DNA from: a virus | Taxonomy: Duplodnaviria; Heunggongvirae; Uroviricota; Caudoviricetes | Direction: 5' to 3' (one strand) | DNA: 61,778 nucleotides | Virus record (IMG/VR): IMGVR_UViG_2778261381_000005 | Part shown: in pieces, positions 2,944-58,303 of the stretch | Layout of the letters: the number at the start of each line of letters is the position of its first letter | Numbering within the stretch: position 1 is the stretch's first letter | Translations under genes and position numbers: made by a program | Notes under the pieces: model-generated | Databases searched by the model: none | What the model was told of the DNA's origin: nothing | Seen by the model: only the letters and a program-made list of their open reading frames with translations

Positions 2944-3005
2944 TCTCTTGAAAATATATAAGTACTTACTTATTATTTTCACATAACAACCACATAGGAA
3001 AACAC

Positions 3006-4888: not shown

Positions 4889-5103
4889 GTTTACAGTAAA
4901 ATTTATATAAGTTAGTATCTACCTATCATGAAGATTTTTATTGAATACTTGTTACTCATCGTTTCAATAGCTTTTGTCATCGACTGCATTTTCACTGGTG
5001 TCATTCGTAAAGTCTTTTCCCCGGTGCACGACGTAGTCATAAACGCTTTGGCTATCGTGCTCGTATTTAATTCAGCATTTGATGTAATCAAAGAGGTGGC
5101 AGC

Positions 5104-5696: not shown

Positions 5697-6231
5697 TCAC
5701 CGCTGACAGCATACACAATCAACTGCCGCTGATAGCATATCGAGAGTCTATCTCACCGCTCACAGCATACTTTACTCGATTTTTTACCGCTGACAGCATA
5801 CTTAAGACATTGCATGAATAATGTGTACCGGTATGGGTATAACCAGAACAAAATTACCGCTGGCAGCATACGAAGGTCTGACATATGCCATTAATTACCG
5901 CTGATAGCATATCCAAACAAAAATTCCTCAATAAAACACCGCTGACAGCATACGTTCTATCAGGGAGCAGCAGGCAATAAATACCTTTCACTACAAGTAA
6001 TCAGCGCAATGGGAATAGAATGTTAGTGAGCGCAAACCTATATGGAATGCACTCTTCGAGGTTAGTAACCACTGGGGAGGTATAAAAGAGCATTGAGTGG
6101 TGATAGATGATTTACCGCTCACAGCATACGTTTATCTCACTATACCGCTGGTAGCATATCTTTAACCGTTCACAGCATACTTTTCAGAAAAATAGCCGCT
6201 GATAGCATACATTTCACCGCTGACAGCATAT
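5697..6231. repeat. iteron array, about 12 copies of ~17-bp unit (C/T)ACCGCTGACAGCATAC and variants, on the 3' side of rep
   Basis: Direct repeats e.g. at 5697, 5786, 5855, 5896, 5937, 6113, 6143, 6164, 6193, 6215. Confidence 0.75.
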
Positions 6232-7325
6232 CAAAGCAGTTTGAGACTATTGGAAAGGATCTCAATCATCTTGATATTTTCAGGCGTCAAATTCTGCGAA
6301 AGTTCGGTTATCTTATTGATAATGTTCTGTTTGGCATCAATTTCCCCGGCTTTCTCATCTGGTTTTTTGGGTTCGATGTCTTCAGGTTTTGGCGGTGCGA
6401 CTTTGAGTTTTGGATTGCGGCTGTGAATCTGGATATAGATCGACCGCCCACGCTTAATCTCGCTGTATTCGAGATAGCCCAAATCTTGGAGAGCTTTTAA
6501 GCCGTTACGTATAGTCTGATTCTGCGAGCTGACATTCCTGCTACTCAAATTGAGTCGCGCACGCAATCGAGCAAGCGATACCGGCGCAGGCTTGGTTGGA
6601 AGACTTTCGATGAAGGTGTACAGAGCCTGTGCTGTTTCTTTGCGTGGTAGCTTATTGATAACCTTTAACTGCAAAAGAACCTTATGGTCAAAGCGATATA
6701 GTTCGGCCAGCTTCGGTTCTGCATAGAACACCACCGTATCTTTCTGCTCGTTGTAGTCCACGCTATTGATGAGGTGCACCATCAGAAGCGAGATCTTGTT
6801 AGAGCCGTCGACGTTCTTTTCTTCATACGTTCTCTGGAAAGACAGAGTTGTACGCATGATCTTCAAAAGACTGTTTGTAAGCCGGTCGCGGAGTGTTTTG
6901 CGGATCTGTGACGATGGATAGCCACAAAACTTCGCAAATTTCGTGATGCTTAACTCGACACGACCATTAGGTTCGCCGTATTCTGCCAGCGAACGCACAA
7001 CGCCCACCCACGTTTTGAAATCATGATCCATGTCCAGGCGAGGACCGGTTATCTTGATATCGGAATAGCCTTCAGAACGGGCTACTTCGAGCTGGACAAG
7101 CTCCTTTGAAGCATCGATCTCATTTGGCTTGTTACGTTTACTGTATTTTGTTCCCTTAAGCGTGGGGACGAACAACCCCAGTCGCATCAACGCAATTGGT
7201 TGGACTGTATTGTTGCTATTAGGGACAAGTTCCCCTGTGTACAATTCAAGGGAACCTTCTTCAAAGTTGTCGATGTTATCTTCTACTTCTTTGTTATTTT
7301 TACCTTTTTTATTTTTTGTGGACAT
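6231..7325 (-). CDS. plasmid-type replication initiator (iteron-binding Rep), tentative
   Basis: Flanked on both sides by iterons; RBS aaaggtg before MSTKNKK start; basic protein; ORF-track start at 7445 rejected because it runs into iterons. Confidence 0.55.
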   Translation of the reverse strand: MSTKNKKGKNNKEVEDNIDNFEEGSLELYTGELVPNSNNTVQPIALMRLGLFVPTLKGTKYSKRNKPNEIDASKELVQLEVARSEGYSDIKITGPRLDMDHDFKTWVGVVRSLAEYGEPNGRVELSITKFAKFCGYPSSQIRKTLRDRLTNSLLKIMRTTLSFQRTYEEKNVDGSNKISLLMVHLINSVDYNEQKDTVVFYAEPKLAELYRFDHKVLLQLKVINKLPRKETAQALYTFIESLPTKPAPVSLARLRARLNLSSRNVSSQNQTIRNGLKALQDLGYLEYSEIKRGRSIYIQIHSRNPKLKVAPPKPEDIEPKKPDEKAGEIDAKQNIINKITELSQNLTPENIKMIEILSNSLKLL

Positions 7326-7344
7326 GTGGACACCTTTGTCATTC

Positions 7345-7446
7345 AACCGCTGACAGCATACTTGATTTGCCGCTGACAGAATACCAAAAACAGTTGGCAG
7401 CATACGGTGAACCGCTGACAGACTATCAATTACCGCTGACAGCATA
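7345..7446. repeat. iteron array (5 copies) immediately upstream of rep start
   Basis: aaccgctgacagcatac, tgccgctgacagaatac, gttggcagcatac, aaccgctgacagactat, taccgctgacagcatac. Confidence 0.75.
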
Positions 7447-7494
7447 CATGAACATGACTTCAGACCAGTCGTGGCGCGGCTTACAGCGATCGGG

Positions 7495-8291: not shown

Positions 8292-8545
8292 CCCTCCAGA
8301 TCGTATATTGGCGTAGATAGAATCTACGCCCCCTCAAAATAGCTCTCATAGCGTTCTACAGTGATCCTGTCTTATTTTTAGTCATACAGACAAGCAAAGT
8401 TGCGCCACGATAAATAGGTATATACTTACTTATAAATTTTGTATATTAAGGCGCTCGTTTCATTCCTAACATACCGTTATGCATAGTTGTTTACCTCCTC
8501 ATTGCTCTTAGAATTTGTATCAAAATAACCACAAAGGAAAAATAC

Positions 8546-9631: not shown

Positions 9632-9864
9632 AGCAAAGTCGTTATGGGAGCTTTCGAGACTTTGCCATCACGATGAAAAGACTTGAACGAGGCCAGACGG
9701 TGATGTTTCACAAGCCCTACCCGCCACAAGGAAATCCCGTAGCGTTTTATCTTGGAAGGTTAACAAGAAAAGGCGTATTGAGGCGCAGATCCTTCCCGGC
9801 GCATACGGAGTTCAGATTGAAAGAAGGCCAAAAGCTAACACACGGTATCAGAGGTGTTATATGA
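9628..9864 (+). CDS. small basic protein (GTG start), tentative
   Basis: ORF bridging sbcD stop and sbcC start; ATGA overlap with sbcC start. Confidence 0.3.
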   Translation: MKQSRYGSFRDFAITMKRLERGQTVMFHKPYPPQGNPVAFYLGRLTRKGVLRRRSFPAHTEFRLKEGQKLTHGIRGVI

Positions 9865-11777
9865 AGTTTTTAAAGCTCCAGGTTGAGAATTTTATGGCTA
9901 TCGCCAGCGCGGAGGTCGAGTTAGATCAGCGTGGTTTAGTGCTTATTCAGGGTGTTAATAGTGATGATAGTTCCGCATCAAGTAATGGCTCTGGAAAGTC
10001 AACTCTAATGAATAGCCTGATGTGGTGTCTTTATGGCGAAACAGCTCATGGTGTGAAGGGTGACGATGTGTTGTCTACCGACCATGAAAAGAACTGTCGT
10101 GTTGCAGTAACCATCGAGGATGAAGGCAAGAGATACGCAATCATTCGTCACCGTAAACACAAAGAGTTCAAAAATCGTCTTATCGTTCGTGGTGAAGATG
10201 GCGATATGACGAAAGGCAAAGATGCGCTGACGCAGGAGTTCGTCGAGCGTCTGATCGGTGCATCTAAAGAGGTTTTCATGGCTTCCATCTATGCGAGCCA
10301 AGAAGCTATGCCAGATTTACCTGGAATGTCCGACAAAAACCTCAAAACCATCGTAGAAGAAGCCGCTGGCGTTGACAGACTGACACGCGCCTACGCTATT
10401 GCTCGTGAGCGAGCTAATGCAGCTGCCGCACGTATGGATGTGGTTAAAACCAAATTGGAGTCGACAATCTCGACCATTGAGGCAACACAGTCAGAAATTG
10501 AGTCAGCGAAAGCCTCCTCTGAATCATGGGAGCAAGAGCGTTCTAAACGTTATGACGATGCCCTGGCTGGGCTGGCCAGTGCCGAAGTTGAGTTAACGGA
10601 AGTTGAACTTGAGATCCGCACTCTTCCCGAACAGATACGTGATACCGAGAAGGCAATCGAAAGTGAGCGCAAAAAGTTAGCCTCAAAAGAAGAACATGAC
10701 GCCAAGTTGCTCAAAGTTCGTGGTGCGATAACTGATATTCGGGCAAGCATCAAAGCTACAGAAAATAGTCAGGCTGATGCAATGAGCCGCGCGCGCAATT
10801 TTAAGACCAAAGCAGAAGAGGTTGGTACTAAAGTAGGATCACCATGCCCTACTTGTGGCAAAGCCTACTGCGAAGAAGATCTATCAACGGTGAAGGAGAA
10901 TTTCATTGAACAAGCACGTCAGGAAATTGGTCAGGCGAAGACACTTGCAGAGGCAATGGCTAAACACAAAACGAATCTTGAGAAAGCGTTAAGCATTGAG
11001 TCTGCCCTTGTTAAAACGACACCTGATGTAACGGCTATCATTGCCCGGATTGAAGAGCTTACGAAACAACTCTCATCTTTGCGTCATCGTGAGAAGGAGG
11101 TTGTTGCTATTGAGTCTCTTGTGACTCGTGCTCGTACTGAGGTCGATCGTATATCAAAAGAGATTAATCCGTTTATTGCTCTTATCGCCAGACACGAAGA
11201 TAACTTGGTATCCAGTAAGTCTACCTTCAAGTCCTTAAAAGATGAGTTGAAGGCTATTCAGGAACAAACGTTGCTATTGGAAAAAGCTCGTCAGGTCTAC
11301 TCTCCTGCCGGGGTGCGTTCTCATATTTTGACGTCTGTTACGCCTTTCCTGAATACACGCACTGCCGAGTATCTCAATACGTTGTCTGACGGGAATATTA
11401 CTGCTGAGTGGTCGACGATGGATGTCACTAAAAAAGGTGAGTATCGCGACAAATTCAACATTAGTGTGCAGAAGAAAGGTTCAAGTAAGTCGTTCCAGAC
11501 CCTCTCTGGTGGTGAGAAGCGGAAGGTTCGCATTGCGTGTTCTTTGGCATTGCAGGATCTGGTTAGTAACCGGGCGAGTAAAAACATCGATTTGTTTATC
11601 GGCGACGAAATTGACGATGCACTCGATACAGCCGGTCTTGAACGCCTCATGGGTATTCTGGAGTCCAAAGCTCGCGAGCGAGGTACTGTGCTGATTATCT
11701 CCCATAAAGAGATGAAGTCATGGTTCCGGGAAACTATTACGCTGGAAGTTAAAGAGGGGCGCAGCTATGTCGTTTAA
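9861..11777 (+). CDS. sbcC: SbcC/Rad50-like ATPase
   Basis: Walker A NGSGKST, central coiled-coil with CPTCGK zinc hook, signature SGGEKRK, Walker B IGDEIDDALD. Confidence 0.8.
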   Translation: MKFLKLQVENFMAIASAEVELDQRGLVLIQGVNSDDSSASSNGSGKSTLMNSLMWCLYGETAHGVKGDDVLSTDHEKNCRVAVTIEDEGKRYAIIRHRKHKEFKNRLIVRGEDGDMTKGKDALTQEFVERLIGASKEVFMASIYASQEAMPDLPGMSDKNLKTIVEEAAGVDRLTRAYAIARERANAAAARMDVVKTKLESTISTIEATQSEIESAKASSESWEQERSKRYDDALAGLASAEVELTEVELEIRTLPEQIRDTEKAIESERKKLASKEEHDAKLLKVRGAITDIRASIKATENSQADAMSRARNFKTKAEEVGTKVGSPCPTCGKAYCEEDLSTVKENFIEQARQEIGQAKTLAEAMAKHKTNLEKALSIESALVKTTPDVTAIIARIEELTKQLSSLRHREKEVVAIESLVTRARTEVDRISKEINPFIALIARHEDNLVSSKSTFKSLKDELKAIQEQTLLLEKARQVYSPAGVRSHILTSVTPFLNTRTAEYLNTLSDGNITAEWSTMDVTKKGEYRDKFNISVQKKGSSKSFQTLSGGEKRKVRIACSLALQDLVSNRASKNIDLFIGDEIDDALDTAGLERLMGILESKARERGTVLIISHKEMKSWFRETITLEVKEGRSYVV

Positions 11778-12510
11778 ATTAAGCCGCTCGCAGTTTTTGC
11801 AGGTATTTGCAGTGATGCAGTCGATAAAACTGATCAATGGGCATACTTCCAATGGTGCGGCTCCACGTATTCTGTGGGGCAGCAACAATATTGACGGAGT
11901 ACAATTCGCCGCGTTGCTTGGTCTAATATCCGAGACGCCATTGATGCAAAGTTTGAAATCACTACCACCTGGATGTATTGCGCCGATCCTGATTAATCCT
12001 TTTGTTGAGGGGGGATATCTTCCCAACGTCGGGCCTGGGTTTATTGCATCCCATGAAACTGAAGATCTTAACATTAATAGCGAAGGGTTCTTTGGGGGAA
12101 TGGGTGCGCATCACTGTATGGCTTTCACGAACCTTATTCGACTTGCCAATAAGCGGGTGGATAGTTTGGCATCGCCAGGTGATGCTTTTACTGGTTTCCT
12201 TATCCAAAGGAGGGATAAAAAGTACAGTGCGGACAAACTACAGTTTGTTGGTAAGTATGGAGAAATGGTAGAAATCGAACTTCAGCTCCCTCATGTTTTA
12301 GCAAACGATAGTGCAGACAGTCGGAGGCTATTGGGCATCATGCGTCATTTCATAGCAAGTGGTGTTAAACATGCCGCAGATAAACGTGTCACGCAGGAAA
12401 ATGAGTATTCAGACTTTGCAAACTATCCCCAACCAACGTTGCAAACGGCAATAGTAGCCAATTCGTTGGAGGCGAGATTATTGGAAAACCCTATATGGGG
12501 AACATGGTAA
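11767..12510 (+). CDS. hypothetical protein
   Basis: ORF overlapping sbcC stop. Confidence 0.5.
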   Translation: MSFKLSRSQFLQVFAVMQSIKLINGHTSNGAAPRILWGSNNIDGVQFAALLGLISETPLMQSLKSLPPGCIAPILINPFVEGGYLPNVGPGFIASHETEDLNINSEGFFGGMGAHHCMAFTNLIRLANKRVDSLASPGDAFTGFLIQRRDKKYSADKLQFVGKYGEMVEIELQLPHVLANDSADSRRLLGIMRHFIASGVKHAADKRVTQENEYSDFANYPQPTLQTAIVANSLEARLLENPIWGTW

Positions 12511-12519
12511 GGAGACTAT

Positions 12520-13089
12520 ATGAGTAAAAAAATCAGCGTAGTTGGTGTTGATCCCTCTATGAGCAACTTTGGGCTTGCTGTGGGCACTTTAGACCTTGAA
12601 ACGGACGAACTTGAGATTCACGGCCTTACTCTTGTTGAGACTAAAGCGGGGAGTAACAAAAAGACCGTTCGTGTGAACAGTGACGATCTGCGCCGCGCCA
12701 GTGAAATATGGCGTGTTGCGAAGCCAATCATTGATAAGGCAAATATGGTTTTTTGTGAGCTACCGGTTGGGAGCCAAAACTCTCGTTCGCAGACGTCTTA
12801 CGGTATTTGTATCGGTGTACTTGCGTGTGTGGATAAGCCATTGATCCAGGTTACTCCAAACGAAATCAAGCATTTTGTCGGCAATAAACTTACTACATCG
12901 AAAGAAGAGATTATCCAGTGGGCTACGAAAAAACACCCTAAAGCACCGTGGCTGCGTCGTAAGCAATCTGGACAGGATGTTCTCGTGAACAAAAACGAAC
13001 ATTTGGCTGATGCGGTGGCTGCCATCCATACCGGTATGCAAACAGATCAGTTCCGCCAGGTGCGCGATGTTCTTAAGTCTCTCATTTGA
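12520..13089 (+). CDS. RuvC-like Holliday junction resolvase
   Basis: N-terminal VVGVDPSMSNFGLAV and conserved acidic residues (FCELP, HLADAV). Confidence 0.6.
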   Translation: MSKKISVVGVDPSMSNFGLAVGTLDLETDELEIHGLTLVETKAGSNKKTVRVNSDDLRRASEIWRVAKPIIDKANMVFCELPVGSQNSRSQTSYGICIGVLACVDKPLIQVTPNEIKHFVGNKLTTSKEEIIQWATKKHPKAPWLRRKQSGQDVLVNKNEHLADAVAAIHTGMQTDQFRQVRDVLKSLI

Positions 13090-13096
13090 TTTCATT

Positions 13097-13118
13097 GATA
13101 GGTAAGTACTTATCTATT
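13097..13118. promoter_or_regulatory. intergenic palindrome ATAGGTAAGTAnTTAcCTAT (motif 2)
   Basis: gataggtaagtacttatctatt; recurs in at least 12 intergenic positions. Confidence 0.4.
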
Positions 13119-13162
13119 AACATGGGCCACTATATTTAGTGGCCCTCTTTATTTGGTGATAC

Positions 13163-15478
13163 ATGATAAGCATCGTAAAACGTAACGGCCAAACAGAGCC
13201 GTTATCCGAAGAAAAATACAACCGCGTCGTAATGTATGGCGTAGAAGGCATTCGTGGTGTAAGCGCATCCGCTGTAGCAATGGGAGCTGCGGCCAGCATT
13301 TTTGATGGGATTACCACCAGCCAGTTGCATGAGGCTTTGGTTAAATCTGCCGCTGATTTGATCTCACCAGAAGCACCAAATTACTCACAGGTGGCTGCCC
13401 GCCTGAACATTTTTAAAATCCGCAAAGATGCCTTCGGTCGTTACGACTATCCGAACTTCTACCAACACATTGTCAAGAACGTTAACAAGGGCGTTTATGA
13501 CAAGGATTTGCTGACACATTATTCGTTTGAAGAGATCGAAGAACTCGGCAATTACATTAAGCCGAAACGTGACGATCTTTTTGGCTATGCAGCTACGGTG
13601 CAGTTGCAAAGCAAATACCTCGTTCAAAACCGTGTTACTGGTGAGATTCACGAAGGCCCGCAACATATCTATATGCTGGTGGGCATGTGTCTGTTCCAGA
13701 ATTGGGAAGACGACTGCGCGGGCAAAACACGTATGGAGATGGTCAAAGGTTTCTATGACGTTACAAGTACGTTCAAACTGTCTCTGCCCACACCAATCAT
13801 GGCTGGCGTCCGTACTCCAACCCGTCAGTTCTCCAGTTGTGTGCTGATTGAGTCTGGCGATAGTCTGAAAGGGATTAGTGCAGCTTCAGCCGCAATTATC
13901 GACTACGTTTCACGTCGTGCTGGAATTGGTATTGGTTTTGGCCGTATCCGTGCGCTGGGCAGTGAGATCCGCAATGGTGAAGCCACCCATACCGGAGTTA
14001 TTCCATTCCTGAAGCATTTCCAGACTGCTGTTAAATCTTGCTCGCAAGGTGGTGTTCGTGGTGGCGCAGCAACAGCGTTTTACCCGATCTGGCATCTTGA
14101 AGTTGAAAGTCTGCTGGTGGTGAAAAATAACCGTGGTATTGATGAAAACCGCGTTCGCCATCTTGATTACGGCGTCATGAGTAACCGTCTAATGTACCGT
14201 CGACTCGTCAGAAGCGAGAACATCACTCTGTTCAGCCCGCATGATGTGCCTGATATGTACGAAGCCTTCTTCACAGACCAGGATCTGTTTGAAAAGCTGT
14301 ACCATAAATACGAAGCCGATGATTCAATTCGCAAGAAGTCAGTACCTGCCATTGAGCTGTTCTCATCTCTGATGCAGGAACGAGCGTCCACGGGCCGAAT
14401 TTATATTGCGAACGTCGATCATATTAATGAGCATGGCGCTTTCATTCCTGCTCTTGCACCTGTCCGCCAGTCAAACCTGTGCATGGAGATCACTCTACCC
14501 ACTCGTCCACTGGCATTTACCGACGACCCGAACGGTGAGATCGCGCTATGCACTTTATCCGCTTTTAACCTCGGAGCCATCCGTTCACTGGAGTCTCTTA
14601 AAGAGGTGGCGTTCTATGCCGTTGCTGCACTGGATTCGTTACTGGATTATCAAGACTATCCGATGGAGGCAGCCGAAGTGCCTGCCAAAGCTCGTCGTAG
14701 CTTGGGAATTGGTGTAACCAACTTTGCTTATTACCTGGCAAAGAATGGCGTTCGTTATTCTGATACCGCTGGCAATAAACTGGTGCATGAAACGTTCGAA
14801 GCTATCCAGTATTACCTTCTTGATGCCAGCTGCCGACTTGCTGAAGCAAAAGGTGAGTGTGACTGGTTTGAGCAGACCAAGTACGCAATTGGTCAGTTGC
14901 CGATCGACCATTACCGTTCTTCATTAGACGAAAGTGGCGAAACCAACTTTGAGTTAAAGATGCCGTGGGAAGAACTGCGTGAACGTATTGCAAAATACGG
15001 CCTTCGCAACTCCACACTGACGGCACAAATGCCATGCGAGACTTCCAGCCAGATCACTAATTCCACCAACGGCATCGAACCGCCTCGTGGCCCGGTGTCG
15101 GTGAAATCTTCTAAGGACGGCATCGTTAAGATGGTCGTGCCTGAGTTTGAAAAACTGAAGGAACAGTATGAATACCTGTGGGATATGCCGGACAACCGCG
15201 GCTATCTGACAAAGGTGGCGATCATCCAGAAGTTCTTTGACCAGGCTATTTCAGCCAATACCAACTATGACCCTTCTCGCTTTGAAGGCGATAAAGTCCC
15301 AATGATGACGCTACTGTCAGATTTGCTTCTCGCCTACAAGATGGGAGTTAAAACGCTTTACTACCACAACACCAGAGATGGGGCAGGAAAGCGTGATGAC
15401 GACGAACCGCAGAATCCACTGACGCAAGCTGTAGCCGTCGAGCCAGAAGATGAGTGCGACGGAGCCTGCAAAATCTGA
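13163..15478 (+). CDS. nrdA: ribonucleotide reductase class Ia alpha subunit
   Basis: N-terminal ATP-cone-like region; motifs SCVLIES, NLCMEI, PCETSSQ; size 771 aa. Confidence 0.9.
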   Translation: MISIVKRNGQTEPLSEEKYNRVVMYGVEGIRGVSASAVAMGAAASIFDGITTSQLHEALVKSAADLISPEAPNYSQVAARLNIFKIRKDAFGRYDYPNFYQHIVKNVNKGVYDKDLLTHYSFEEIEELGNYIKPKRDDLFGYAATVQLQSKYLVQNRVTGEIHEGPQHIYMLVGMCLFQNWEDDCAGKTRMEMVKGFYDVTSTFKLSLPTPIMAGVRTPTRQFSSCVLIESGDSLKGISAASAAIIDYVSRRAGIGIGFGRIRALGSEIRNGEATHTGVIPFLKHFQTAVKSCSQGGVRGGAATAFYPIWHLEVESLLVVKNNRGIDENRVRHLDYGVMSNRLMYRRLVRSENITLFSPHDVPDMYEAFFTDQDLFEKLYHKYEADDSIRKKSVPAIELFSSLMQERASTGRIYIANVDHINEHGAFIPALAPVRQSNLCMEITLPTRPLAFTDDPNGEIALCTLSAFNLGAIRSLESLKEVAFYAVAALDSLLDYQDYPMEAAEVPAKARRSLGIGVTNFAYYLAKNGVRYSDTAGNKLVHETFEAIQYYLLDASCRLAEAKGECDWFEQTKYAIGQLPIDHYRSSLDESGETNFELKMPWEELRERIAKYGLRNSTLTAQMPCETSSQITNSTNGIEPPRGPVSVKSSKDGIVKMVVPEFEKLKEQYEYLWDMPDNRGYLTKVAIIQKFFDQAISANTNYDPSRFEGDKVPMMTLLSDLLLAYKMGVKTLYYHNTRDGAGKRDDDEPQNPLTQAVAVEPEDECDGACKI

Positions 15479-15536
15479 CATATGGTGGGGGATATCCCCA
15501 CCTTCTCTTTGATTTGTAAGCCTTGTTTAAACACAT

Positions 15537-15558
15537 AAGATAACAACTTGTTTAAACG
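15537..15558 (+). promoter_or_regulatory. motif 1 palindrome upstream of nrdB
   Basis: agataacaacttgtttaaacg followed by leader aaaaaggaaaaacacATG. Confidence 0.45.
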
Positions 15559-15584
15559 CACCAAAAAAGAAAAAGGAAAAACAC

Positions 15585-16727
15585 ATGTCATATTCAACGT
15601 TCCGTTTGGGTGCTAATGATGCAACCAAAGAGCCTATGTTCCTCGGACAATCTGTCAACGTGGCACGTTACGATCAGCAAAAATACCGTGATTTTGAAAA
15701 GTTGATTGAACGTCAATTGTCTTTCTTCTGGCGGCCGGAAGAAGTTGATATTTCGAGCGATCGTATCGACTTCAACACGAAGCTGCGGGACCACGAACGT
15801 CACATTTTTCTGAGCAATCTCCGTTATCAAACGTTACTCGATTCAGTTCAGGGACGTAGCCCAAATGCAACGCTGCTGCCGCTTATCTCTATTCCTGAAC
15901 TGGAAACGTGGGTTGAAACATGGTCTTTCTCTGAGACTATCCATAGCCGCAGCTACACCCACATTATTCGTGGCATGGTGGACGATCCGAGTATTGTTTT
16001 TGACGGTATTGTTACGGATGAAGAAATCATCAACCGAGCGATCAGTATCTCTGCTGAATATGACAGGCTTTATAGGATGACCTGCGAGCGCCAGTCGTTA
16101 GGTGAGAAAGAGTTTGAACGTCTGTACGTAAATGAATATGGCTGGGAGCCATACCCTTTGCACCGTCAGCTTTTCCGCACGTTGGTGTCCATTAATGCGC
16201 TTGAGGCGATCCGTTTCTATGTAAGTTTTGCATGTACGTTTGCCTTTGGCGAACGGAAGTTGCTTGAGGGTAACACCAAAATTATGCGCTTTATTGCCCG
16301 TGATGAAGCTCTGCATTGCGAAGGAACTGAACGCATGATCCGCTTCATGCGTACCGGTCGCGAAGGTTTATTGTGGAAAGAGATTGCTGCTGATGAAGAA
16401 AACGTCATTTACGACACCATGAAATCAGTCGCCGAACAAGAAATGAACTGGGCAGACTATCTCTTCAAAGACGGTTCGATGATTGGTTTAAACGCGGATA
16501 TTCTGAAGACCTATGTAAAATACCGCACCAATCTGGCTATGAATCGTCTTGGCCTGAAGGCTTTATTTCCAGAAGTTACCACAGATCCGCTGGTCTGGAT
16601 GAACAAGTGGTTGTTAACCGACACACTGCAAATTGCACCACAAGAGGCAGAGCAAAGCACATATCTGGTAGGTCAGATCGATTCTACCGTGGACAAGGCT
16701 TCTCTAAGCCAGTTTGCAGACCTGTAA
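15585..16727 (+). CDS. nrdB: ribonucleotide reductase class Ia beta subunit
   Basis: 380 aa directly after nrdA; di-iron ligand-like E/H pattern ([18 protein letters not shown]). Confidence 0.85.
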
Positions 16728-16804
16728 ACCGATACAAAGCATTATGTGGCCTGGCAACGCTGGGCCACAATGGATCACAAGAATTAAGAAGGAACAAAAC
16801 TAGC

Positions 16805-17674
16805 ATGAACTTTACCAAACTGACTGACCACCTGAAACTTGCCACCGATCGACTCATTGGATTTAAGCCAGAACCATATGAGTTGCATGAAGGTCATGGT
16901 GTAGCTACTGAAAGTATTTACAAGATGGTCGATCAGTTTCATGAACTCTTCCAGCATCCGAGACGCGTTATGCCGACACCAGAGCTGCTTCGTCTCCGTG
17001 CAAGCCTGATTCATGAAGAAGCTGTAGTGGAAGGTATTCCAGCCGCAATGAATGGGGATATTGAGCAACTGCTGGATGCAATGGCCGACTTTTTATACGT
17101 TGGTGTTGGTACGATGGTCGCCATCAAAGGTGGTATTTCTACCGGCATGACCTATTACACGCAGGAACAGAGCATTGATCGCTTTATGCAGACAATTTTT
17201 GTGCCCGGTAACACTGTTTTCGATGATATGGCAATGCCATTTCAGGAAGCTCGTGAGGCGTCATGTATGCTCGAAGAGCTGGCAGATAAACTTGAGAAGA
17301 AGACTGTTAAGGATTCTGAGCTGATTCAGGAACTGCGCCGTGTAATGAACAAAATCTATGTGGCGTGCATGATGACTTATCGACTGGCTGATTTCCTCGG
17401 TATCAATGTCGTCGAGCTGGTTGGCGAAATTCATCGGTCTAACATGACAAAATTATGGCCTGCTGATGTTGAGGAACGTCGCCAGGCTGTGGCCAACTGC
17501 AAATACGACTCTTCAGATCTGGGATTCCGCCATGCTGATGGCACCGATAAGATGATCGGTTTTCGAATTTCCGATGGAAAGATTCTGAAGTCTCCAACCT
17601 ATAGTGATGTCGATTTATCCTCCTTTGTTGAGCAAGCTAAAGCCTCAGCAATGTACGGAATGATCAAAAAATAA
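16805..17674 (+). CDS. hypothetical protein, possibly MazG-like nucleotide pyrophosphohydrolase
   Basis: RBS aagaaggaa before ATG at 16805 (ORF-track start at 16607 overlaps nrdB and is rejected); EExxE-like acidic helices. Confidence 0.45.
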   Translation: MNFTKLTDHLKLATDRLIGFKPEPYELHEGHGVATESIYKMVDQFHELFQHPRRVMPTPELLRLRASLIHEEAVVEGIPAAMNGDIEQLLDAMADFLYVGVGTMVAIKGGISTGMTYYTQEQSIDRFMQTIFVPGNTVFDDMAMPFQEAREASCMLEELADKLEKKTVKDSELIQELRRVMNKIYVACMMTYRLADFLGINVVELVGEIHRSNMTKLWPADVEERRQAVANCKYDSSDLGFRHADGTDKMIGFRISDGKILKSPTYSDVDLSSFVEQAKASAMYGMIKK

Positions 17675-17742
17675 TTGTAGGTAGTTATCTATCTGTGTAT
17701 ATTTAACATGCGTAATAAAACTCTGGAATGACTATTCGTTTT

Positions 17743-17767
17743 GGTGGCCTATGGCCACCATTTTTTT
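17743..17767 (+). terminator. rho-independent terminator
   Basis: GGTGGCC tat GGCCACC followed by TTTTTTT. Confidence 0.65.
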
Positions 17768-17844
17768 ATCTGTCTGGTCTTGTTCTCTCAATGAATGTAA
17801 ACTCACACGATGAATAAGTAATTACTTATCTTTGTGAGGTTTTT

Positions 17845-22496: not shown

Positions 22497-22679
22497 CGTT
22501 CCCCTACTTAAAATAAAGCCCATAGAGAGCTTTATAGTACTGGGTAAGCCAATCACATACCCAGCACCACAAAAACGCGCCAGAGAGCTTCTCGTTTGCA
22601 TTTCTGGCGCGTTTTATTTGATTGCCAGACATAAAATCAAATGCAAAAATAGGTATATACTTACCTATCGAGAAAGAAG

Positions 22680-23459: not shown

Positions 23460-23690
23460 ATGTCATACCCGACTAATGTCGTTGCGCTCGTAGAGAGCGA
23501 TTTTCTGGCCCAGGCTCGTGAAATGATGAAAGATCGTGAGCAGGCTTTCAACTTGTACGAATGGGCAATTAAGTGCTTGCATCTTGGGGAGCATCGCGAA
23601 CTTGTTGAACAGCTTTTAGGTGAGTTGATCAACGAGGTGTTTGCCTTGAATGTTCAACTACATGGTCGAAAAAATAATCAATCGAAATGA
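23460..23690 (+). CDS. hypothetical protein
   Basis: RBS aagga before ATG at 23460. Confidence 0.4.
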   Translation: MSYPTNVVALVESDFLAQAREMMKDREQAFNLYEWAIKCLHLGEHRELVEQLLGELINEVFALNVQLHGRKNNQSK

Positions 23691-24275
23691 TAGATAAGTA
23701 CAAACTATTCATAAAGTGAATTGTAAGTGCTAAGATCTGATAGTTTCCAGTCGTAGATTGGAGGCTCGACCTGATGGGTGGGGGTAAGCGTCACTGGCGT
23801 CAGGTTTAAAAAAGCTCACTACCAGCGTAGAACCGGCACCGTTTAGGGGTTGGGGAAGGGGGAACCAAAGTGAGCAGAGACAAGGGTCACTTTATGATTG
23901 TCGAGTCTGGGGTGTTTCGAGAGGTTGAATCCAGTACTCCCCTTCATAAAGTGTGGGAAGATCTCGGTTCTGGGGTGCTGTCATCCATAACTTCCCAAGC
24001 CTAAGCTGGCAGTAGACTTAGGTCATAACTTTTCAGGTTATGAAACGACCAGGTTGGTGAGGAAATTTTGTACTCACCTCCCTGGGAGAGTATTACCTGA
24101 AAAGACAACCTCTCACTTCGTTCGAGGTGAACTTCACTCACTTCGTTCGTTCAGTTCAGGTTTATAAAAACCTGTTCTGGGAAGTAATTTGTTTATTTTA
24201 ATAATTATTAACACGCACGCGTGTGCGCACGCGCGAGGAAAAAAAATCGGCGCGGCGCTTGATTCAGGAGTTTAT

Positions 24276-24866
24276 ATGACGACGAAGACACCAGCCCGAT
24301 CGCAAGCAAAAACTCGCAAAAATGACAAAAACAAAAATTCTCCCCGCACCAATTCCACAACGCCTGTCGTAGAGTTCAATCCCCAGCTTAAAACCGTGAA
24401 AATCTTCAGTGATGGCTCTTGCCTTAAAAATCCGGGTGGCCCGGGCGGTTACGGTATAGTTCTCCAGTATGGTGGTGAGGAACGCGAGTTCTCAGATGGT
24501 TTTCATAGCACCACCAATAACCGCATGGAGATGATGGGGGCACTTATCGGGCTGGAGCGTTTGAAATATCCATGCAACGTTATTTTGTACTCTGATAGCC
24601 AGTATCTGAAAAACGGCATGACACAGTGGATGAAATGGTGGAAACGCAATGGATGGATGACTTCTGACAAAAAACCGGTAAAGAATGTTGATCTGTGGAA
24701 GCGTCTGGATGAGGCCGCAAGTCGACATAATGTTCGCTGGAAGTGGGTTAAAGGTCACGCCGGGCATCGTGAAAATGAAATATGTGATCGACTCGCGAAG
24801 ATCGCAGCTTTTTCAGCAGCAGATATGCCTCACAAGAAAGATATTGGTTTTGTTTATAACAAGTAG
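24276..24866 (+). CDS. rnhA: ribonuclease H (RNase HI-like) with basic N-terminal extension
   Basis: KIFSDGSC...[35 protein letters not shown]; RBS caggag before ATG 24276. Confidence 0.8.
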
Positions 24867-25014
24867 TAAGTAAGTGTTTACCTATCATTTTAAATCATGT
24901 ATCTTATCAGCGTCAGGATGACAATGTGTCGGTAAGACACAGTTCCAGGATGGAACGAGAAAGGCGGCTGGCGATCGCCAGCCGCAACTCTTTCTGACAC
25001 TGGATGGAGTCCAC

Positions 25015-28684: not shown

Positions 28685-31600
28685 CTATATCTGCCCACCT
28701 ACTCCTTTGAACTTTTCAATAAACGTGACGATTTTCTGGAAAACGGTCTGTTTTTTCGTTTTATATTGCGGGTTTAACGGACTAAGTTTTGGTAATGTCT
28801 CGTTTAATTCTGTGCCATTTTCGGTGGCGTATTCGCGTTTTAAAGACGTGCGAATATAGCGTTTCGCCGCCTCTTCATTGAGATTTTCTTCTTTTATCAA
28901 TGCTTCTGCTTCACGTTGCTGTTCGCGTTGAGCAAACGTAAAGAATGCCTCAATGATACTGGCTTTGTCTGGTAAATCATCCAGGTTCGTTTGCTGAATA
29001 AAATCGACCACCAGGCCCTCTTTCGCCCGGTTCCCCAGGCTTGAACGAATTAAGCGTTTGACCTCTTCGATCATTTCGCCCTTGCCTTTATTTTGTCTGT
29101 TGTGTTCGAAAATCAGTCCAAGGATATAATCCAGGTTTATTTCCTGAGACTTCAGCAAATCGACCTCAAAAACTACGTCATCCCAGTCAGTGGTTGATTT
29201 CTCTTTTTTCTCAGCTTCTTTCTCACGGCGCTGCCAGTCGCGAATATCGTTATAGGCAGAACGATAATCCTGAATCTTGCGTTCAGCAGGGAGACGAATT
29301 GTTTGCAATTCAGCGAACTTTTCATCATCCACATAATGTTCTGCTTTGAATTTTTCTACCGCAACAGGATCGCTAAGATCGATTTGTTGCAGGGCTTTCA
29401 GCGTGGCAAATTCATCATAGTTTTGCAGGATGTTCTCGGCACGCAGGTATTCACCAAACAGTTTTACGAAGTCTTTCTTCTCTTTTTCACTTTCAATACT
29501 GGCAGGGTCAGGGAACCGTTGTTCCAGTTCTGAAACTACTGCCATAAAGCCGCGTTTAGCTTCACCAGTGGCAGCATCTGTAAAGCCTTCCATATACTCA
29601 GCATAACTCTTTTCTAACACCACATTTTTAGTATTTTTATCACCAAACAGCGTTATGGCATCAATGGTTGAGCGTTCCAGATCCCGAAAAGTGACGATGT
29701 TACCGAAGGTTTTAGTAGCGTCATAAATGCGGTTGGTACGGGAGAATGCCTGCATCAGGCCGTGAAAACGCAAGTTTTTATCGACGAATAGCGTGTTCAA
29801 TGTTGGAGCGTCGAAGCCGGTTAAAAACATCCCAACGACAATTAACAGATCGATATCCTGATTTTTAACCCGTTGGGCTAAATCACGATAGTAGTTCTGA
29901 AAACCGTTACTGTCGGTGCTGAAGTTAGTTTTAAAATAGCTGTTATACTCACGAATTGCAGCGTCAAGAAACTCTTTAGCACTGCTGTCCATTGCGCTGG
30001 TATCAAAAGTTTCATCGGAAATTTCACCAATGGCATTTTGTTCTTCATTGGCGGCAAAGGAGAAGATTGTTGCAACACGCAGCGGTTTATAGGTAGCCGA
30101 TTTATTAGCTGCTTCCTCTTGTAACCGTTTAAACGTCGCGTAATAGGCTTTCGCGGCATCCACGCTACTCACTGCCAGCATGGCATTAAAGCCTTTGGAA
30201 CCTGGGAAAGTACGGTGGGTCTTCTGGCGGAAGTTATTCAGAATATATTGCGTAATTTCCTGTATACGCATGGGATGAAGAAATGCCTGCTGATTTTCAG
30301 CCGCACTCAGTTTTTTCTCGTCGGTTTCTGTCTCTAAAGATTTAAACTGTGGCCGCACATCGTTGTAGTCCACCTTGAATTTGAGCACTTTTTCATCACG
30401 AATCGCATCGGTAATTACATACGAATGCAATTCACGACCAAATACGCTGGCGGTCGTTTCTGAGCCTAAGGCGTTTTCCGGGAAAATAGGTGTGCCGGTA
30501 AAACCAAACTGATAATAGCGTTTGAATTTCTTCTTCAGGTTTTTCTGCGCTTCTCCAAACTGGCTGCGGTGACATTCATCAAATATAAACACCACTTGCT
30601 GATTGTATACAGGCAGGTCGCTTTCTGCTTTCATCAGGTTATTAAGTTTCTGAATAGTGGTGACGATAATTTTGTTATCGTCCTTATCCAGATTGCGTTT
30701 AAGACCTGCGGTATTTTCCGAGCCGTTGACGCTGTCTGGCGAAAAACGCTTATATTCATTCATGGTCTGGTAATCGAGGTCTTTCCTGTCGACCACGAAG
30801 AAGACTTTATCAATAAAGTCCAGCTCTGTTGCCAGACGCGCGGCTTTAAAGCTGGTGAGGGTTTTACCTGAACCGGTAGTGTGCCAGATATACCCACCGC
30901 TTTCCGGTTTTGACCAGTTCTTCGCTGTAAAGGAACTCTTAATTTTCCACAGAATGCGCTCAGTGGCGGCAATCTGGTACGGTCGCATCACCAGTAGCGT
31001 TTGGCTAACATCGAATACGCTGTAGTTCACTAAGACATTAAGCAGGGTATGTTTCTGGAAAAAGGTGGCGGTAAAGTCTTTGAGGTCTTTAATCAGCGTG
31101 TTGTCTGATTTCGCCCAATTCATGGTGAAGTCAAAACTGTTTTTATCGCGCTTTGTCGTGTTGGCAAAGTAACGGGTATCGGTGCCGTTGGAAATGACAA
31201 ACAGTTGCAGATACTTAAACAGAGAATTTTCGCTGTTAAAACTCTCTTTGCTGTAACGATGTATCTGGTTAAAGGCCTCACGAATCGCCACGCCGCGCTT
31301 TTTCAGTTCGATTTGTACCAGCGGTAAGCCATTAACCAGGATCGTGACGTCATAACGGTTAGCATGAGAACCCGTCTGTTCAAACTGCTGGATAATCTGC
31401 ACCTTGTTGCGCATGAGATTCTTTTTATCTATCAAATAGATGTTCTCAAGACGCTCGTCATCAAAAATAAAGTCGCAAATATAGTCGATATGGATTTTAC
31501 GGGTCTTATCCAGGATGCCATCGCTCGGGTTATCCAGATACTGCTCCGTGAAACGCCGCCATTCGCTGTCATTAAACACCACACCATTGAGGTTCTGAAG

Positions 31601-31801
31601 CTGTTCCCGAACGTTGGCCAGCATCGCCGACTGAGATTTTACGGAAATAAATTCATAGCCCTGATTCCGCAGATCCTGAATCAGTTCACGTTCCAGGTCC
31701 GATTCGCTCTGGTAGCTGTCGCCTGTTTGCTCGGCTTTGATGTACTTATCAAGAACGATAAAGTTATTGGATTCAGCAATGGTGTGTGTCTGATGAGTCA
31801 T
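28685..31801 (-). CDS. hsdR: type I restriction enzyme R subunit (EcoR124-like, type IC)
   Basis: 1038 aa; helicase motifs TGSGKT, DECHRS, SRTNR; N-terminus resembles EcoR124I HsdR as I recall it. Confidence 0.9.
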
Positions 31802-31922
31802 AGCGCATCCTTTGTGCCGTCTGGCAAGGGCCGGAAGGGCTTTAAGGGCGACTTCCGGCGTGTAAAAAATAGTCTCTATATAGACCGGATGTTAAGGTGA
31901 TCCGGTCGGTAGCAATGGTCAA

Positions 31923-33178
<1,256 letters not shown>

Positions 33179-33182
<4 letters not shown>

Positions 33183-34741
33183 GCCTGTACCTCGCTACCT
33201 TCAATCTCAGCAACAATCGCATCAATATCTTTACGCAACTGGTCGATTTTGCTGACCGTGGTTTTCAGCTCAGCATTCAGCTCAGCGATATCGATAATTT
33301 CGCGAGTATCTTTCGCTTCCACATAGCTGCTCACCGACAGGTTATAGTCATTCGCGACAACAGTCTCAAACGCAACAGATTTCGCCAGATGAGCAACATC
33401 TTCCTTGCTGGCAAATACCTGCATAATCTGTTCGATATGAGCATCGGTCAGAATGTTGTTGTTAGTCTCTTTTTTGAACAGTTCGCTGGCATCAATAAAC
33501 TGAACTTTGGTATCCGTTTTATGTTTAGACAGCACCAGAATATTGACGGCAATAGTGGTGCCAAAGAACAGATTCGGTGCCAGTGAAATCACGGTTTCGA
33601 CATAGTTATTGTCGACCAGATACTGACGGATTTTCTGCTCCGCGCCGCCACGGTAAAAAATGCCTGGGAAGCAGACAATCGCAGCGCGACCTTTGGCCGA
33701 AAGATAGTTCAGCGCATGTAATACAAACGCAAAGTCAGCTTTGGATTTGGGGGCCAGAACGCCAGCCGGGGCAAAACGTTCATCGTTAATCAGCGTCGGG
33801 TCATCGCTGCCAATCCATTTCACCGAATACGGCGGGTTAGAAACGATGGCATCAAACGGTTTTTCATCTCTGAAGTGCGGCTCAGTCAGTGTATTACCCA
33901 GCTTGATATCAAACTTGTCGTAGTTGATGTTGTGCAAAAACATGTTCATACGCGCCAGGTTATAGGTCGTATGGTTGATTTCCTGACCAAAAAAACCTTC
34001 TTCGATGATATGGTCATCAAACTGTTTTTTCGCCTGCAACAACAGCGAACCGGAGCCTGCTGCCGGGTCGTAGATTTTGTTAACGTGGGTCTGCCCGTGC
34101 ATAGCCAGTTGTGCAATCAGCTTAGAGACGTGCTGCGGTGTAAAGAACTCGCCGCCGGACTTACCGGCATTCGCCGCATAGTTAGAAATCAGGAACTCAT
34201 AGGCGTCACCGAACAGGTCAATCTGATGTTCATGGAAGTCACCAAGTTTTAGCCCTTCAACCCCTTTCAGAACCGCAGCCAAGCGGGCATTTTTATCTTT
34301 AACGGTGTTACCCAGGCGGTTACTGGTGGTATCGAAATCAGCAAACAAACCTTTGATGTCAGCTTCTGAAGGATAACCGTAAGCAGAACTTTCGATAGCA
34401 ACGAAGATGCTGTTTAAATCTGCATTCAGTCTGTCATTAGTATTTGCTTTCGCAGCTACGTTGCAGAAAAGCTGACTGGGGTAGATGAAGTAGCCTTTAG
34501 TTTTGATGGCATCGTCTTTAATGTCATCAGTAATTACGCTGTCATCCAGTTTCGCATAACAGATACTGTCATCACCGGCTTCAATATAACTGGAAAAATT
34601 TTCGCTGATAAAACGGTAAAAAAGCGCGCCCAAAACGTACTGCTTAAAATCCCATCCATCGACTGAACCCCTGACATCGTTAGCAATTTGCCAGATCTGG
34701 CGATGAAGCTCTGCACGTTGTTGAATACTTGTCATTTTCAT
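33179..34741 (-). CDS. hsdM: type I restriction-modification methyltransferase subunit
   Basis: 520 aa; N6-adenine MTase motifs DPAAGSGS and NPPY; operon order hsdM-hsdS-hsdR. Confidence 0.9.
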
Positions 34742-42040: not shown

Positions 42041-42104
42041 GTATTGTAAGTACATACTTACGATCATAGAATATAAAAATAACCAATACACTACGGAGAG
42101 TGAA

Positions 42105-49565: not shown

Positions 49566-49591
49566 ATAATAAGTAAGTGATTACTTAGTGG
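49566..49591. promoter_or_regulatory. motif 2 palindrome in divergent region
   Basis: ataataagtaagtgattacttagtgg. Confidence 0.4.
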
Positions 49592-54889: not shown

Positions 54890-56464
54890 ATGGAATTGAA
54901 CGACAAACAAATTAAGGATCTGGTGGCGCGACGCCACCCGGAATACGAAAAGAAAAAAGAACATTGGGACTTCCTCGCCAGCACTTACGCTGGCGGGCGT
55001 GGTTGGTTTACAGACAATATCTTTCGTTACTTTAAAGAGGGAGATCAGGAGTTTAAGGAGCGAGTTGAACGTGCTTATCGCTTCAACCACACTCGTGAGG
55101 TGGTAAACCTCATCAACAAATATCTCTTTAAAGAAGACATTCATAGAAATATCGAAGAGGCACCAGAGCAGATCCGCAATTTCTGGAAACGTGCGACTCG
55201 CCAGAATGCCTCTATTGACTCATTTATGGCCGCTATTGATTTGCAGTCGTCTATTTACGGTCGCATATGGGTTGTTGTCGATAGCACGATGAGTGGTGAT
55301 GTTGAGTCAGTAGCTGACGAGAAAAAGAAAGATGCTCGCGCCTACGCCTACTGGATTTCACCTCAGCAAATGCTGGATGTGGCATGGGACGACGACGGGA
55401 ATATGTTGTGGGCGTTAATTGTGGAAGTCGCTCGTGATGACGCAGATCCTTTTACTTCTACAGGTCAGGAATACCAACGTTATCGTCTGTGGACACAAAA
55501 CGAGTGGTATCTGTTCCGTGAGGAAGTGAAGAAGGGCGCTGGTGGAGCAGGTCGCCGTCAGGCAAAAGTTATTTTAGAGGATAGCGGTGAGCATAATCTC
55601 GGCGTAGTTCCTGTGTTTCCTGTTGATTGTATTGGAGAAAGTGAATCACCGTATTTCAGCCCATCGTTGATCGATGATATCGCTTATCTTGATCGTGCGG
55701 TTGCAAACTATCTGTCAAACCTTGATGCCATTATTCAGGATCAGACATTTAGCCAGTTGGCTATACCGGTACAGTCGCTTTTACCTGGTGATGAAAACCA
55801 CACTAAAGTGCTTGAAATGGGCACAAAGCGAGTCTTCACCTACGATTCTGAAGGTGGAAACCAGCCGTTTTATCTGTCACCAGACCCGAAACAAGCTCAG
55901 ATGATCATCACTACGATTAAGACGGTGATTAACGAAATCTACCATTCAGTTGGTGTAGCTGGTGAGCGAACGAAGCAGGACAACGCACAGGGAATCGATA
56001 ATTCATCTGGTGCCGCAAAAATGTATGACTTCCAGCGTGTAAATAGCTTGCTTGTCACAAAAGCAGAGCGTCTGGAAAGGGCTGAACGCCAAATCATGCT
56101 ACTGGTTGCGAAATGGATGGGGGTAGATCTGGACGAAGACCACTCTTTAATTGCATATCCAGAAAGTTTCGATATTCGTGGCCTTACTGATGAATTTTCT
56201 GTTGCCGAGAAACTGTCATTACTTCAGGCACCGGACTCTGTACGTCGTCACCAGATGGAAATGCTTATTGAGAAGATTTTCCCGAACATTACTGAGGCGA
56301 TGAAAAAGGAATTTGATAAAGATCTCTTGAATTTTCCTCCAAAAAATGATCTAAATACCCTTGAAAATAAGTCAGTACTTACTTATGATCGTGGTGCAGC
56401 CCAAGAAAGCGGGCAAGATCAACCCCGAGGGAATGGGGACTCATCTACTCAAGAGAACGAGTGA
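54890..56464 (+). CDS. portal protein
   Basis: 524 aa between terL and scaffold gene. Confidence 0.7.
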   Translation: MELNDKQIKDLVARRHPEYEKKKEHWDFLASTYAGGRGWFTDNIFRYFKEGDQEFKERVERAYRFNHTREVVNLINKYLFKEDIHRNIEEAPEQIRNFWKRATRQNASIDSFMAAIDLQSSIYGRIWVVVDSTMSGDVESVADEKKKDARAYAYWISPQQMLDVAWDDDGNMLWALIVEVARDDADPFTSTGQEYQRYRLWTQNEWYLFREEVKKGAGGAGRRQAKVILEDSGEHNLGVVPVFPVDCIGESESPYFSPSLIDDIAYLDRAVANYLSNLDAIIQDQTFSQLAIPVQSLLPGDENHTKVLEMGTKRVFTYDSEGGNQPFYLSPDPKQAQMIITTIKTVINEIYHSVGVAGERTKQDNAQGIDNSSGAAKMYDFQRVNSLLVTKAERLERAERQIMLLVAKWMGVDLDEDHSLIAYPESFDIRGLTDEFSVAEKLSLLQAPDSVRRHQMEMLIEKIFPNITEAMKKEFDKDLLNFPPKNDLNTLENKSVLTYDRGAAQESGQDQPRGNGDSSTQENE

Positions 56465-58279: not shown

Positions 58280-58303
58280 GAAGTAGATAAGTAATTATCT
58301 ATG
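58280..58303. promoter_or_regulatory. motif 2 palindrome
   Basis: gaagtagataagtaattatctatg. Confidence 0.4.

Follow-up and report, generated by a model that had tools for sequence, protein, structure and literature searches.

Between a RuvC-like gene and nrdA, at positions 13,097 to 13,118 of a 61,778-nucleotide stretch of viral DNA (hereafter the window, meaning this stretch at its full length), lies an AT-rich palindrome of about 20 bp. The question raised by this locus is whether it acts as a DNA site for a regulatory protein or as a structured element of the transcript and, in the former case, which protein would bind it and to what effect. A sequence-only reading had offered both possibilities, i.e. 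middle or late promoter or operator sites, or RNase III-type processing stems.

In megablast searches, nucleotides 9800-17800 of the window were 99.5% identical to Escherichia phage Cyrano (OV696614), an SSU5-like phage-plasmid of E. coli LF82, and approximately 76% identical to Salmonella phage SSU5 and Klebsiella phage-plasmids. Judged by these alignments, the window is part of an SSU5-like E. coli phage-plasmid. Its gene order leads from recombination and replication through nucleotide metabolism to accessory genes and, across the record ends, continues with terminase, portal, head and neck genes. Plasmids of the window's type have a size of about 110-114 kb, occur in E. coli (e.g. NZ_CP010144) and carry a type I restriction-modification insertion without counterpart in Cyrano. 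The complete system (hsdR, hsdS, hsdM) is located at 28685-34741 (- strand) and is found in many E. coli plasmids of about 110 kb of this type; the 12-bp unit CAGCGGTAAG.. is present three times inside hsdS (32597-32632). The repA gene (6231-7445, - strand) is flanked by seven to eight copies of the repeat ACCGCTGACAGCATAC (5699-5960 and 7346-7450), which are probably iterons of the plasmid origin. An unexpected cargo for a phage-plasmid is a gene for a 200-aa protein (46663-47265, - strand) that matches the Pfam family Flag1_repress (FljA, the phase-1 flagellin repressor; E = 2.5e-84) and is conserved in SSU5. Host-like genes at 35094-35833 and 36999-39161 comprise a DNA polymerase III theta homologue, a UmuD-like S24 peptidase gene, which is expressed in the lysogen, and a methionyl-tRNA synthetase-sized gene. 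No Rfam families were found anywhere in the window, nor any tRNA genes, and among 20 window proteins inspected with Pfam and PHROGs there was no annotated helix-turn-helix regulator besides the FljA-like repressor.

The palindrome at 13098 belongs to a family with the consensus ATAGRTAAGTACTTAYCTAT. A copy was present at each of the thirteen positions named in the sequence-only reading (2957, 4905, 8413, 13097, 17676, 17811, 22648, 23689, 24862, 42041, 49566, 54859 and 58280), and a further good copy with three mismatches, not named there, was located at 56367-56386 within the 3' end of the portal gene (Table 1). Motif enumeration with statistics, as that reading had proposed, gave matches far above chance: eight with up to three mismatches (0.00 expected from 100 dinucleotide shuffles), 11 with up to four and 20 with up to five (0.05 and 0.38 expected, respectively, in a second-order Markov control). 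Ten of the 11 sites with up to four mismatches fall in the non-coding 11.9% of the window. The copies at 17673, 23690, 49569 and 42042 are weak; the last of these represents a sub-type, TTGTAAGTAC..AC(T/C)TA, and its SSU5 orthologue has five mismatches. The existence of the AT-rich 20-bp palindrome family is thereby confirmed. Its supposed GGTAAGTA core fared less well, as this exact sequence exists but occurs just six times, and only three of these occurrences are family members. Among 106 distinct site sequences, conservation was strongest in the two outer arms (ATAGGTA, TACCTAT), and a TA step was invariant every 4 bp (positions 2-3, 6-7, 10-11, 14-15 and 18-19), while the centre (positions 8-13) differed even among close relatives. 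No papers describing these palindromes were found in the searchable literature.

Table 1. Members of the palindrome family in the window, listed as putative operators with mismatches to the consensus, predicted promoter hexamers and neighbouring features.
Member	Coordinates	Mismatches	Predicted promoter hexamers	Surroundings
Putative operator ATATATAAGTACTTACTTAT	2954..2973	2	Fills spacer of TTGAAA (2948-2953)-17-TATTAT (2971-2976)	After terminator 2919-2939; ATG at 3006, 32 nt downstream
Putative operator ATAAGTTAGTATCTACCTAT	4907..4926	4	Conserved TTTACA (4890-4895)-17-TAGTAT (4913-4918), -10 in palindrome centre	ATG 4928 begins 1 nt after
Putative operator ATAGGTATATACTTACTTAT	8414..8433	3	-10-like TATAAA at 3' edge; no conserved -35	Upstream of sbcD (8546)
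Perfect-consensus putative operator ATAGGTAAGTACTTATCTAT	13098..13117	0	TTGATA (13095-13100)-17-TAACAT (13118-13123), -35 overlapping left edge	Between RuvC-like gene and nrdA
Weak member AATTGTAGGTAGTTATCTAT	17673..17692	5	-35 TTGTAG (17675-17680) within left arm; -10 TATATT (17698-17703)	Overlaps mazG stop codon
Putative operator ATAAGTAATTACTTATCTTT	17814..17833 (alternative register 17810-17829)	3		thyX GTG (17845) 11 nt downstream
Putative operator ATAGGTATATACTTACCTAT	22649..22668	2	Directly 3' of extended -10 promoter, conserved TTGCCA (22622-22627)-17-TGcAAAAAT (22645-22650); covers predicted start site	dam-type methyltransferase gene (ATG 22680)
Weak member ATAGATAAGTACAAACTATT	23690..23709	5		At stop codon of 23436-23690 gene; upstream of highly conserved, lysogen-expressed non-coding stretch
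Putative operator GTAAGTAAGTGTTTACCTAT	24866..24885	4	Followed by TATCAT	At RNase H-like gene stop codon
Sub-type member TATTGTAAGTACATACTTAC	42042..42061	7	TTGTAA (42044-42049)-17-TAGAAT (42067-42072), -35 within left arm	Immediately follows terminator
Weak member ATAAGTAAGTGATTACTTAG	49569..49588	5	Directly 3' of perfect -10 TATAAT (49565-49570)	Head of operon from ParB-like genes through terminase genes (ATG 49606)
Putative operator ATAGGTAAGTAATTATCTAA	54860..54879	2	No conserved promoter hexamers	Overlaps terL stop codon; portal ATG (54890) 10 nt on
Putative operator ATAAGTCAGTACTTACTTAT	56367..56386	3	Fills spacer of TTGAAA (56361-56366)-17-TATGAT (56384-56389)	In portal gene 3' end; identical in SSU5
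Putative operator GTAGATAAGTAATTATCTAT	58283..58302	2		8 nt past major capsid gene stop codon; directly before terminator hairpin (about 58305-58335)

Whole-genome scans of Cyrano and SSU5, two genomes of about 105 kb with approximately 76% nucleotide identity, yielded 18 and 19 sites with up to four mismatches, respectively, at orthologous intergenic positions and all inside + strand gene blocks. A search of IMG/VR with the RuvC-like protein gave 76 loci (69-100% identity), in which the sites are kept upstream of the same genes while their flanks have diverged. The perfect 20-mer occurred in 26 IMG/VR stretches, most of them on contigs already retrieved as SSU5-like. Conservation of the copies in related phages, on which the sequence-only reading had made its proposal depend, was thus found both in SSU5 and in 76 viral contigs.

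If the palindrome acted as an RNA stem, the transcribed strand should accept G.U but not A.C pairs and show compensatory changes between the arms. In the 106 distinct sites the paired fraction between the arms was 0.7736, compared to 0.7718 +/- 0.0084 in shuffles in which the 3' letters were permuted among sites; 45% of the shuffles reached the observed value, and no covariation between the arms was seen. G.U and A.C combinations were found 57 and 53 times, respectively, in these sites (13 and 13 in Cyrano, eight and 10 in SSU5), and the four combinations at positions 5 and 16 occurred at the frequencies expected under independence. The half-sites match one consensus independently of each other, as is characteristic of repressor operators bound by helix-turn-helix dimers. 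Since the arms vary independently toward one consensus, they point to a symmetric protein dimer on double-stranded DNA. We conclude that the palindrome acts at the level of double-stranded DNA and not as a stem in RNA. Nor do the palindromes resemble intrinsic terminators, as their arms are AT-rich and lack a T run; genuine terminator-like hairpins, separate from the palindromes, adjoin several of the sites.

A consensus scan combined with alignments of relatives showed that σ70-type hexamers overlap the palindrome in no fewer than five registers; being matches to the consensus, these hexamers denote predicted promoters. The palindrome (i) fills the spacer (sites 2954 and 56367); (ii) overlaps the -35 hexamer with its left edge (nrdA promoter at site 13098); (iii) holds the -10 hexamer in its centre (site 4907); (iv) holds the -35 hexamer in its left arm (sites 42042 and 17673); or (v) covers the start site (the methyltransferase gene and the operon head of the ParB-like genes). 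Conservation of the promoters was checked for the groups of sites 2954, 4907, 13098, 17673 and 22649: both hexamers of the nrdA promoter are kept in every relative examined, and TTTACA at site 4907 in nearly all. Predicted -35- and -10-like hexamers overlap eight of the 14 window sites, and the remainder are without. Convincing hexamers were found at none of the sites 54860, 58283, 17814 and 24866, so promoter occlusion cannot be their role. The proposal of promoter or operator sites is borne out to the extent that the palindromes overlap conserved σ70-like hexamers and behave as symmetric double-stranded DNA sites. The assignment to a middle or late class is not supported, as genes for replication, recombination and nucleotide metabolism stand behind the sites no less than those for packaging, head, tail and lysis.

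Some of the sites lie close to terminators. The terminator hairpins at 13124-13145 and about 58305-58335 start 1-7 nt past promoter-like hexamers of the adjacent sites, and the predicted start sites at 13098 and 58283 are located inside the 5' arms of these hairpins. A hairpin over a start site would end incoming upstream transcripts yet let new ones start. Between mazG and thyX (17675-17765), the predicted promoter TTGTAG-17-TATATT is followed about 40 nt on by a strong terminator (17742-17760), an arrangement conserved in relatives; this interval could give rise to a transcript of about 50 nt, possibly a small RNA or leader.

Expression of the genes behind the sites was taken from published RNA-seq data of the LF82 lysogen (PMC9928086, supplementary file 2). 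The first genes behind near-consensus palindrome promoters were at the floor (CYRAN_56 and CYRAN_60, 4.99; nrdA, 7.6), and CYRAN_45, the candidate repressor gene described below, was expressed at 96 compared to a background of 9.8 (PMC9928086). Silence of the controlled genes together with expression of the repressor gene is what repression predicts, and it is also compatible with a missing activator. After 6 h in macrophages, genes behind operators with more mismatches were expressed more highly (Spearman 0.53, p = 0.02, n = 19), a modest correlation with an uncorrected p value, obtained in the leakiest of five conditions, all without real induction. Repressor-bound sites acting as roadblocks that insulate lysogen-expressed operons were considered and are not needed, as a long intrinsic terminator is located where expression drops strongly, at Cyrano 31134-31328.

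Absence of an activator would be the cause of silence if the palindrome were the activator box of lytic promoters that lack a -35, where an activator binds upstream of the -10 and recruits RNA polymerase. The model for such an arrangement is the P1 late promoter, AAGT[G/T]ACTT followed after 4 nt by the -10, whose 9-bp inverted repeat is the Lpa-binding site (PMC10695390). The likeness lies in a short AAGT/ACTT palindrome (-22 box AAGTNACTT, the core AAGTACTT in the present family) just upstream of the -10, often without -35, and in the dispersal of the box, which is repeated about 11 times in the P1 genome. About half of the sites end in a TAT with which a TATnAT hexamer begins, and no -35 is seen. 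A candidate protein is also at hand: P1 lpa lies directly upstream of pacA, and just upstream of terS in the window 52513-52779 encodes an 88-aa winged-helix-like product. This protein belongs to PHROG family 900, which has no assigned function, its winged-helix likeness was judged by eye, and a similar 71-aa protein, CYRAN_37, is encoded outside the window. We nevertheless regard an activator box, the strongest of the rival readings, as unlikely, because the P1 box AAGTNACTT of 9 bp is fixed 4 bp from the -10, whereas the 20-bp palindrome takes the registers described above, including positions over the start site and over the -35. Conservation within the motif is lowest in its 8-bp core, whose offset to -10-like hexamers varies. 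A single geometry with the final TAT as start of the -10 is true of some sites only, and the flanking base preferences are roughly symmetric, the -10-like right edge being mirrored on the left. Near-consensus promoters with 17-bp spacers (TTGAAA/TATGAT, TTGATA/TAACAT) should need no activator, yet they were at the lysogen floor. Moreover, when P1 Lpa was compared by phmmer and blastp with every ORF of Cyrano, SSU5 and the window, no homologue was detected (best E = 0.8). Assignment of the palindromes to the P1 Lpa-box family was therefore rejected: the AAGT/ACTT likeness is real, but spacing and core are variable and an Lpa homologue was not found. There is a rather small chance that the palindromes are the recognition element of an unrecognised class of lytic promoters in which a small winged-helix-like protein replaces -35 recognition. 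Such a class may be a convergent counterpart of P1 Lpa, its protein having no sequence relation to Lpa, and its sites would possibly be shared with a repressor by analogy with CI and Cro in lambda.

A position that varies from -40 to +12 relative to the promoter argues for repressor operators rather than for an activator of fixed geometry, and the multiple registers favour a promoter-blocking operator over an activator box. That the palindromes are DNA operators of an element-encoded regulator is highly probable. The candidate for this regulator is CYRAN_45, a 128-aa XRE-type helix-turn-helix protein whose gene adjoins the integrase gene outside the window; its match to Pfam HTH_19 is sub-threshold (E = 7.8e-4, 19.7 bits, cut-off 30.2). 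Upstream of CYRAN_45, TTTACA-16-TAATAT is immediately followed by ATCGGTAAGCACTTACCAGA, which equals the inner 14 bp of the family consensus and lies over the predicted start site. Of 97 matches to the repressor, 80 loci were listed, encoding repressors 56-100% identical. In 75 of these 80, TTTACA-16-TAATAT is followed by ATC(G/A)GTAAG(C/T)ACTTACCA, so that the family core GGTAAGYACTTACC is kept over the predicted start site of the repressor promoter; many of the loci have an additional ATAGATAAGT over the -35. The placement of GTAAG[CT][AG]CTTAC directly after the -10 of CYRAN_45-type genes is that of an autoregulatory operator. In a comparison of Cyrano with Klebsiella pJN2-26 (56% identity of the two proteins), the promoter block stood out as a conserved island in a diverged intergenic region, and the recognition region GYKNxNxLSLIKxGxIPLP is invariant across the 56-100% identical homologues. 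A rough estimate of the chance of finding a site with up to five mismatches in a 250-bp repressor upstream region, based on an expected rate of about 0.7 such sites per genome, was about 0.0015. A point against CYRAN_45 is that the resemblance of its own site is limited to the inner 14 bp of the consensus, whereas the dispersed sites are best conserved in their outer arms.

Where the sites were found in lysogenic elements, a gene of the CYRAN_45 type was present as well; among complete contigs, each sub-lineage sampled had one, and so did plasmids of the window's type (contig 2718218304_000001, 114,159 bp). SSU5, described as virulent (PMC5427195), has no such gene and lacks exactly the 3.9 kb corresponding to Cyrano 39097-43038; it keeps the sites. 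This segment, outside the window, contains two tRNA genes, the integrase gene, CYRAN_45 and CYRAN_43, whose expression in the lysogen (7084) exceeds that of all other Cyrano genes. A further point against this candidate is that the sites are also kept in a 69%-diverged relative (L076), whose contig is not among the repressor matches listed (80 of 97).

As the site data require just a symmetric dimer, the operators might serve a different protein of the element, in repression or in another role, e.g. a Cro-like lytic regulator, a winged-helix-like protein of the CYRAN_123 or CYRAN_37 type, or the two ParB_N proteins acting in a KorB-like manner. Two small winged-helix-like proteins are conserved in SSU5, which keeps all sites, and both ParB_N proteins are encoded at 49588-50954 with a weak site at their promoter. 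The KorB operators (OB) of RK2 (IncP) offer a precedent, as they are a dozen dispersed palindromes for a global repressor of the ParB family; nothing in the present data links the ParB_N proteins of the window to the palindromes, however, and the OB sequence is unrelated. CYRAN_123 (7.8) and CYRAN_37 (6.4) were at background in the lysogen (PMC9928086) and therefore cannot maintain repression there. The site arrangement of the CYRAN_45 promoter is not shared by any of these genes. A second palindrome family, AGAAAACAAnTTGTTTTCT, also requires a binding protein. Altogether, a regulator other than the CYRAN_45 type seems rather improbable.

Copies of AGAAAACAAnTTGTTTTCT were located in the window at 4100, 15538, 25761, 26490, 39243, 39294, 41157, 41641, 42543, 43293, 43778, 52894 and 52919. 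They lie about 8-10 nt past -10-like hexamers (often extended, TGnGATAAT), i.e. at about +4 to +22, and 10-25 nt ahead of start codons, with two tandem copies before terS. As the genes behind them include lysogen-expressed ones (the parA operon, CYRAN_102 and CYRAN_109), they constitute a regulatory class different from that of the ATAGRTAAGTACTTAYCTAT palindromes.

That the palindromes are bound by a host transcription factor which E. coli, Salmonella and Klebsiella share is very improbable: the consensus is constant across elements from different hosts and the arms ATAGGTA/TACCTAT presumably fit the NarL-type heptamer TACYYMT, but the heptamers face the opposite way with a spacing different from the 7-2-7 of NarL, the perfect site was found only in the 26 IMG/VR stretches mentioned above, most of them SSU5-like, and the site at the element's own repressor promoter points to an element-encoded regulator.

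It is equally hard to maintain that the palindromes are RNA hairpins in polycistronic transcripts, functioning in processing by RNase III or other enzymes, as stabilisers or as translational operators near ribosome-binding sites. Their intercistronic location, in several cases 10-12 nt ahead of a start codon or directly after a stop codon, and the hairpin of 6-11 bp that most sites can form would suit such a role. Predicted stabilities were, however, only 0 to -7.8 kcal/mol, with the member at 4907 unfolded, and the stems are far shorter than those of classical RNase III substrates, which have stems of roughly two helical turns. In addition, the arm sequence itself is conserved over about 25 paralogous sites, and a copy is also present at the start of the repressor gene, whose transcription runs in the opposite direction. 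Together with a paired fraction equal to shuffle expectation, the lack of covariation and G.U counts that equal those of A.C, this led us to reject the RNase III-type processing stems that had been proposed.

From the conservation and symmetry of the sites, their overlap with promoter hexamers and the co-occurrence of the repressor gene, we infer binding, the identity of the bound protein and its repressive effect as follows. Each palindrome would be a double-stranded DNA binding site for a dimer of the element-encoded regulator, which would recognise the half-site ATA[G/A][G/A]TAAGT with its invariant TA steps. The sites would lie on core promoters of lytic units, over the -35, the spacer, the -10 or the start site, such that the bound protein would exclude RNA polymerase. 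One repressor, most likely the CYRAN_45-type protein encoded outside the window, would thus silence roughly 20-25 scattered promoters during plasmid maintenance, and its loss would switch all of them on. By binding a weaker copy over the start site of its own gene, the repressor would also limit its synthesis. This full model, in which a CYRAN_45-type repressor silences lytic promoters through dispersed operators, is in our judgement probable, with considerable room for doubt.

The C1 repressor of P1 is a better analogy for such a system than the P1 Lpa late promoters. According to the P1 record annotation, C1 is the immunity repressor of a plasmid prophage with many operators dispersed over a genome of about 100 kb; each of these operators overlaps part of an individual σ70 promoter, be it the -35, the -10 or the start site, and further operators are located at the repressor's own gene. 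P1 operators are, however, asymmetric 17-bp sequences and C1 has 283 aa, whereas the present family is a 20-bp palindrome with a 128-aa XRE-type candidate, and no sequence relationship between the two systems was found. With the CI/Cro operators of lambdoid phages (lambda, 434, P22) the sites would share the properties of palindromic helix-turn-helix dimer sites of 14-20 bp that overlap promoters, with independently degenerate half-sites, a variable centre and a weaker copy that autoregulates the repressor promoter. Lambdoid operators are grouped at two or three loci (OL, OR), in contrast to the about 20-25 single sites spread throughout the lytic modules of the present element.

A stretch downstream of the weak site at 23690 showed unusual properties. 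Positions 23769-24167 (about 400 bp) are 96-98% identical to SSU5, with flanks at 63-80%. The sole annotation is a 44-aa ORF (CYRAN_81), with a lysogen expression of 117 compared to the background of 9.8. The predicted RNA fold has -149 kcal/mol (z = -3.5), without an Rfam match. We regard this stretch, located a short way 5' of the RNase H-like gene, as a candidate for a structured non-coding RNA.

Among clinical E. coli, Klebsiella and Salmonella, SSU5-like phage-plasmids are widespread, and resistance genes can be part of their cargo; no description of their lysis-lysogeny circuitry was found in the searchable literature. The present analysis provides a map of about 20-25 predicted promoter-operator units together with a candidate master repressor and its putatively autoregulated promoter. 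It suggests that the strategy of P1, with one repressor and many scattered operators, arose independently with a palindromic site and an XRE-type protein. If the model is true, the virulence of SSU5 would be explained by the missing 3.9-kb module with the repressor gene, and the operator consensus would be usable for annotating SSU5-like elements and for engineering their induction.
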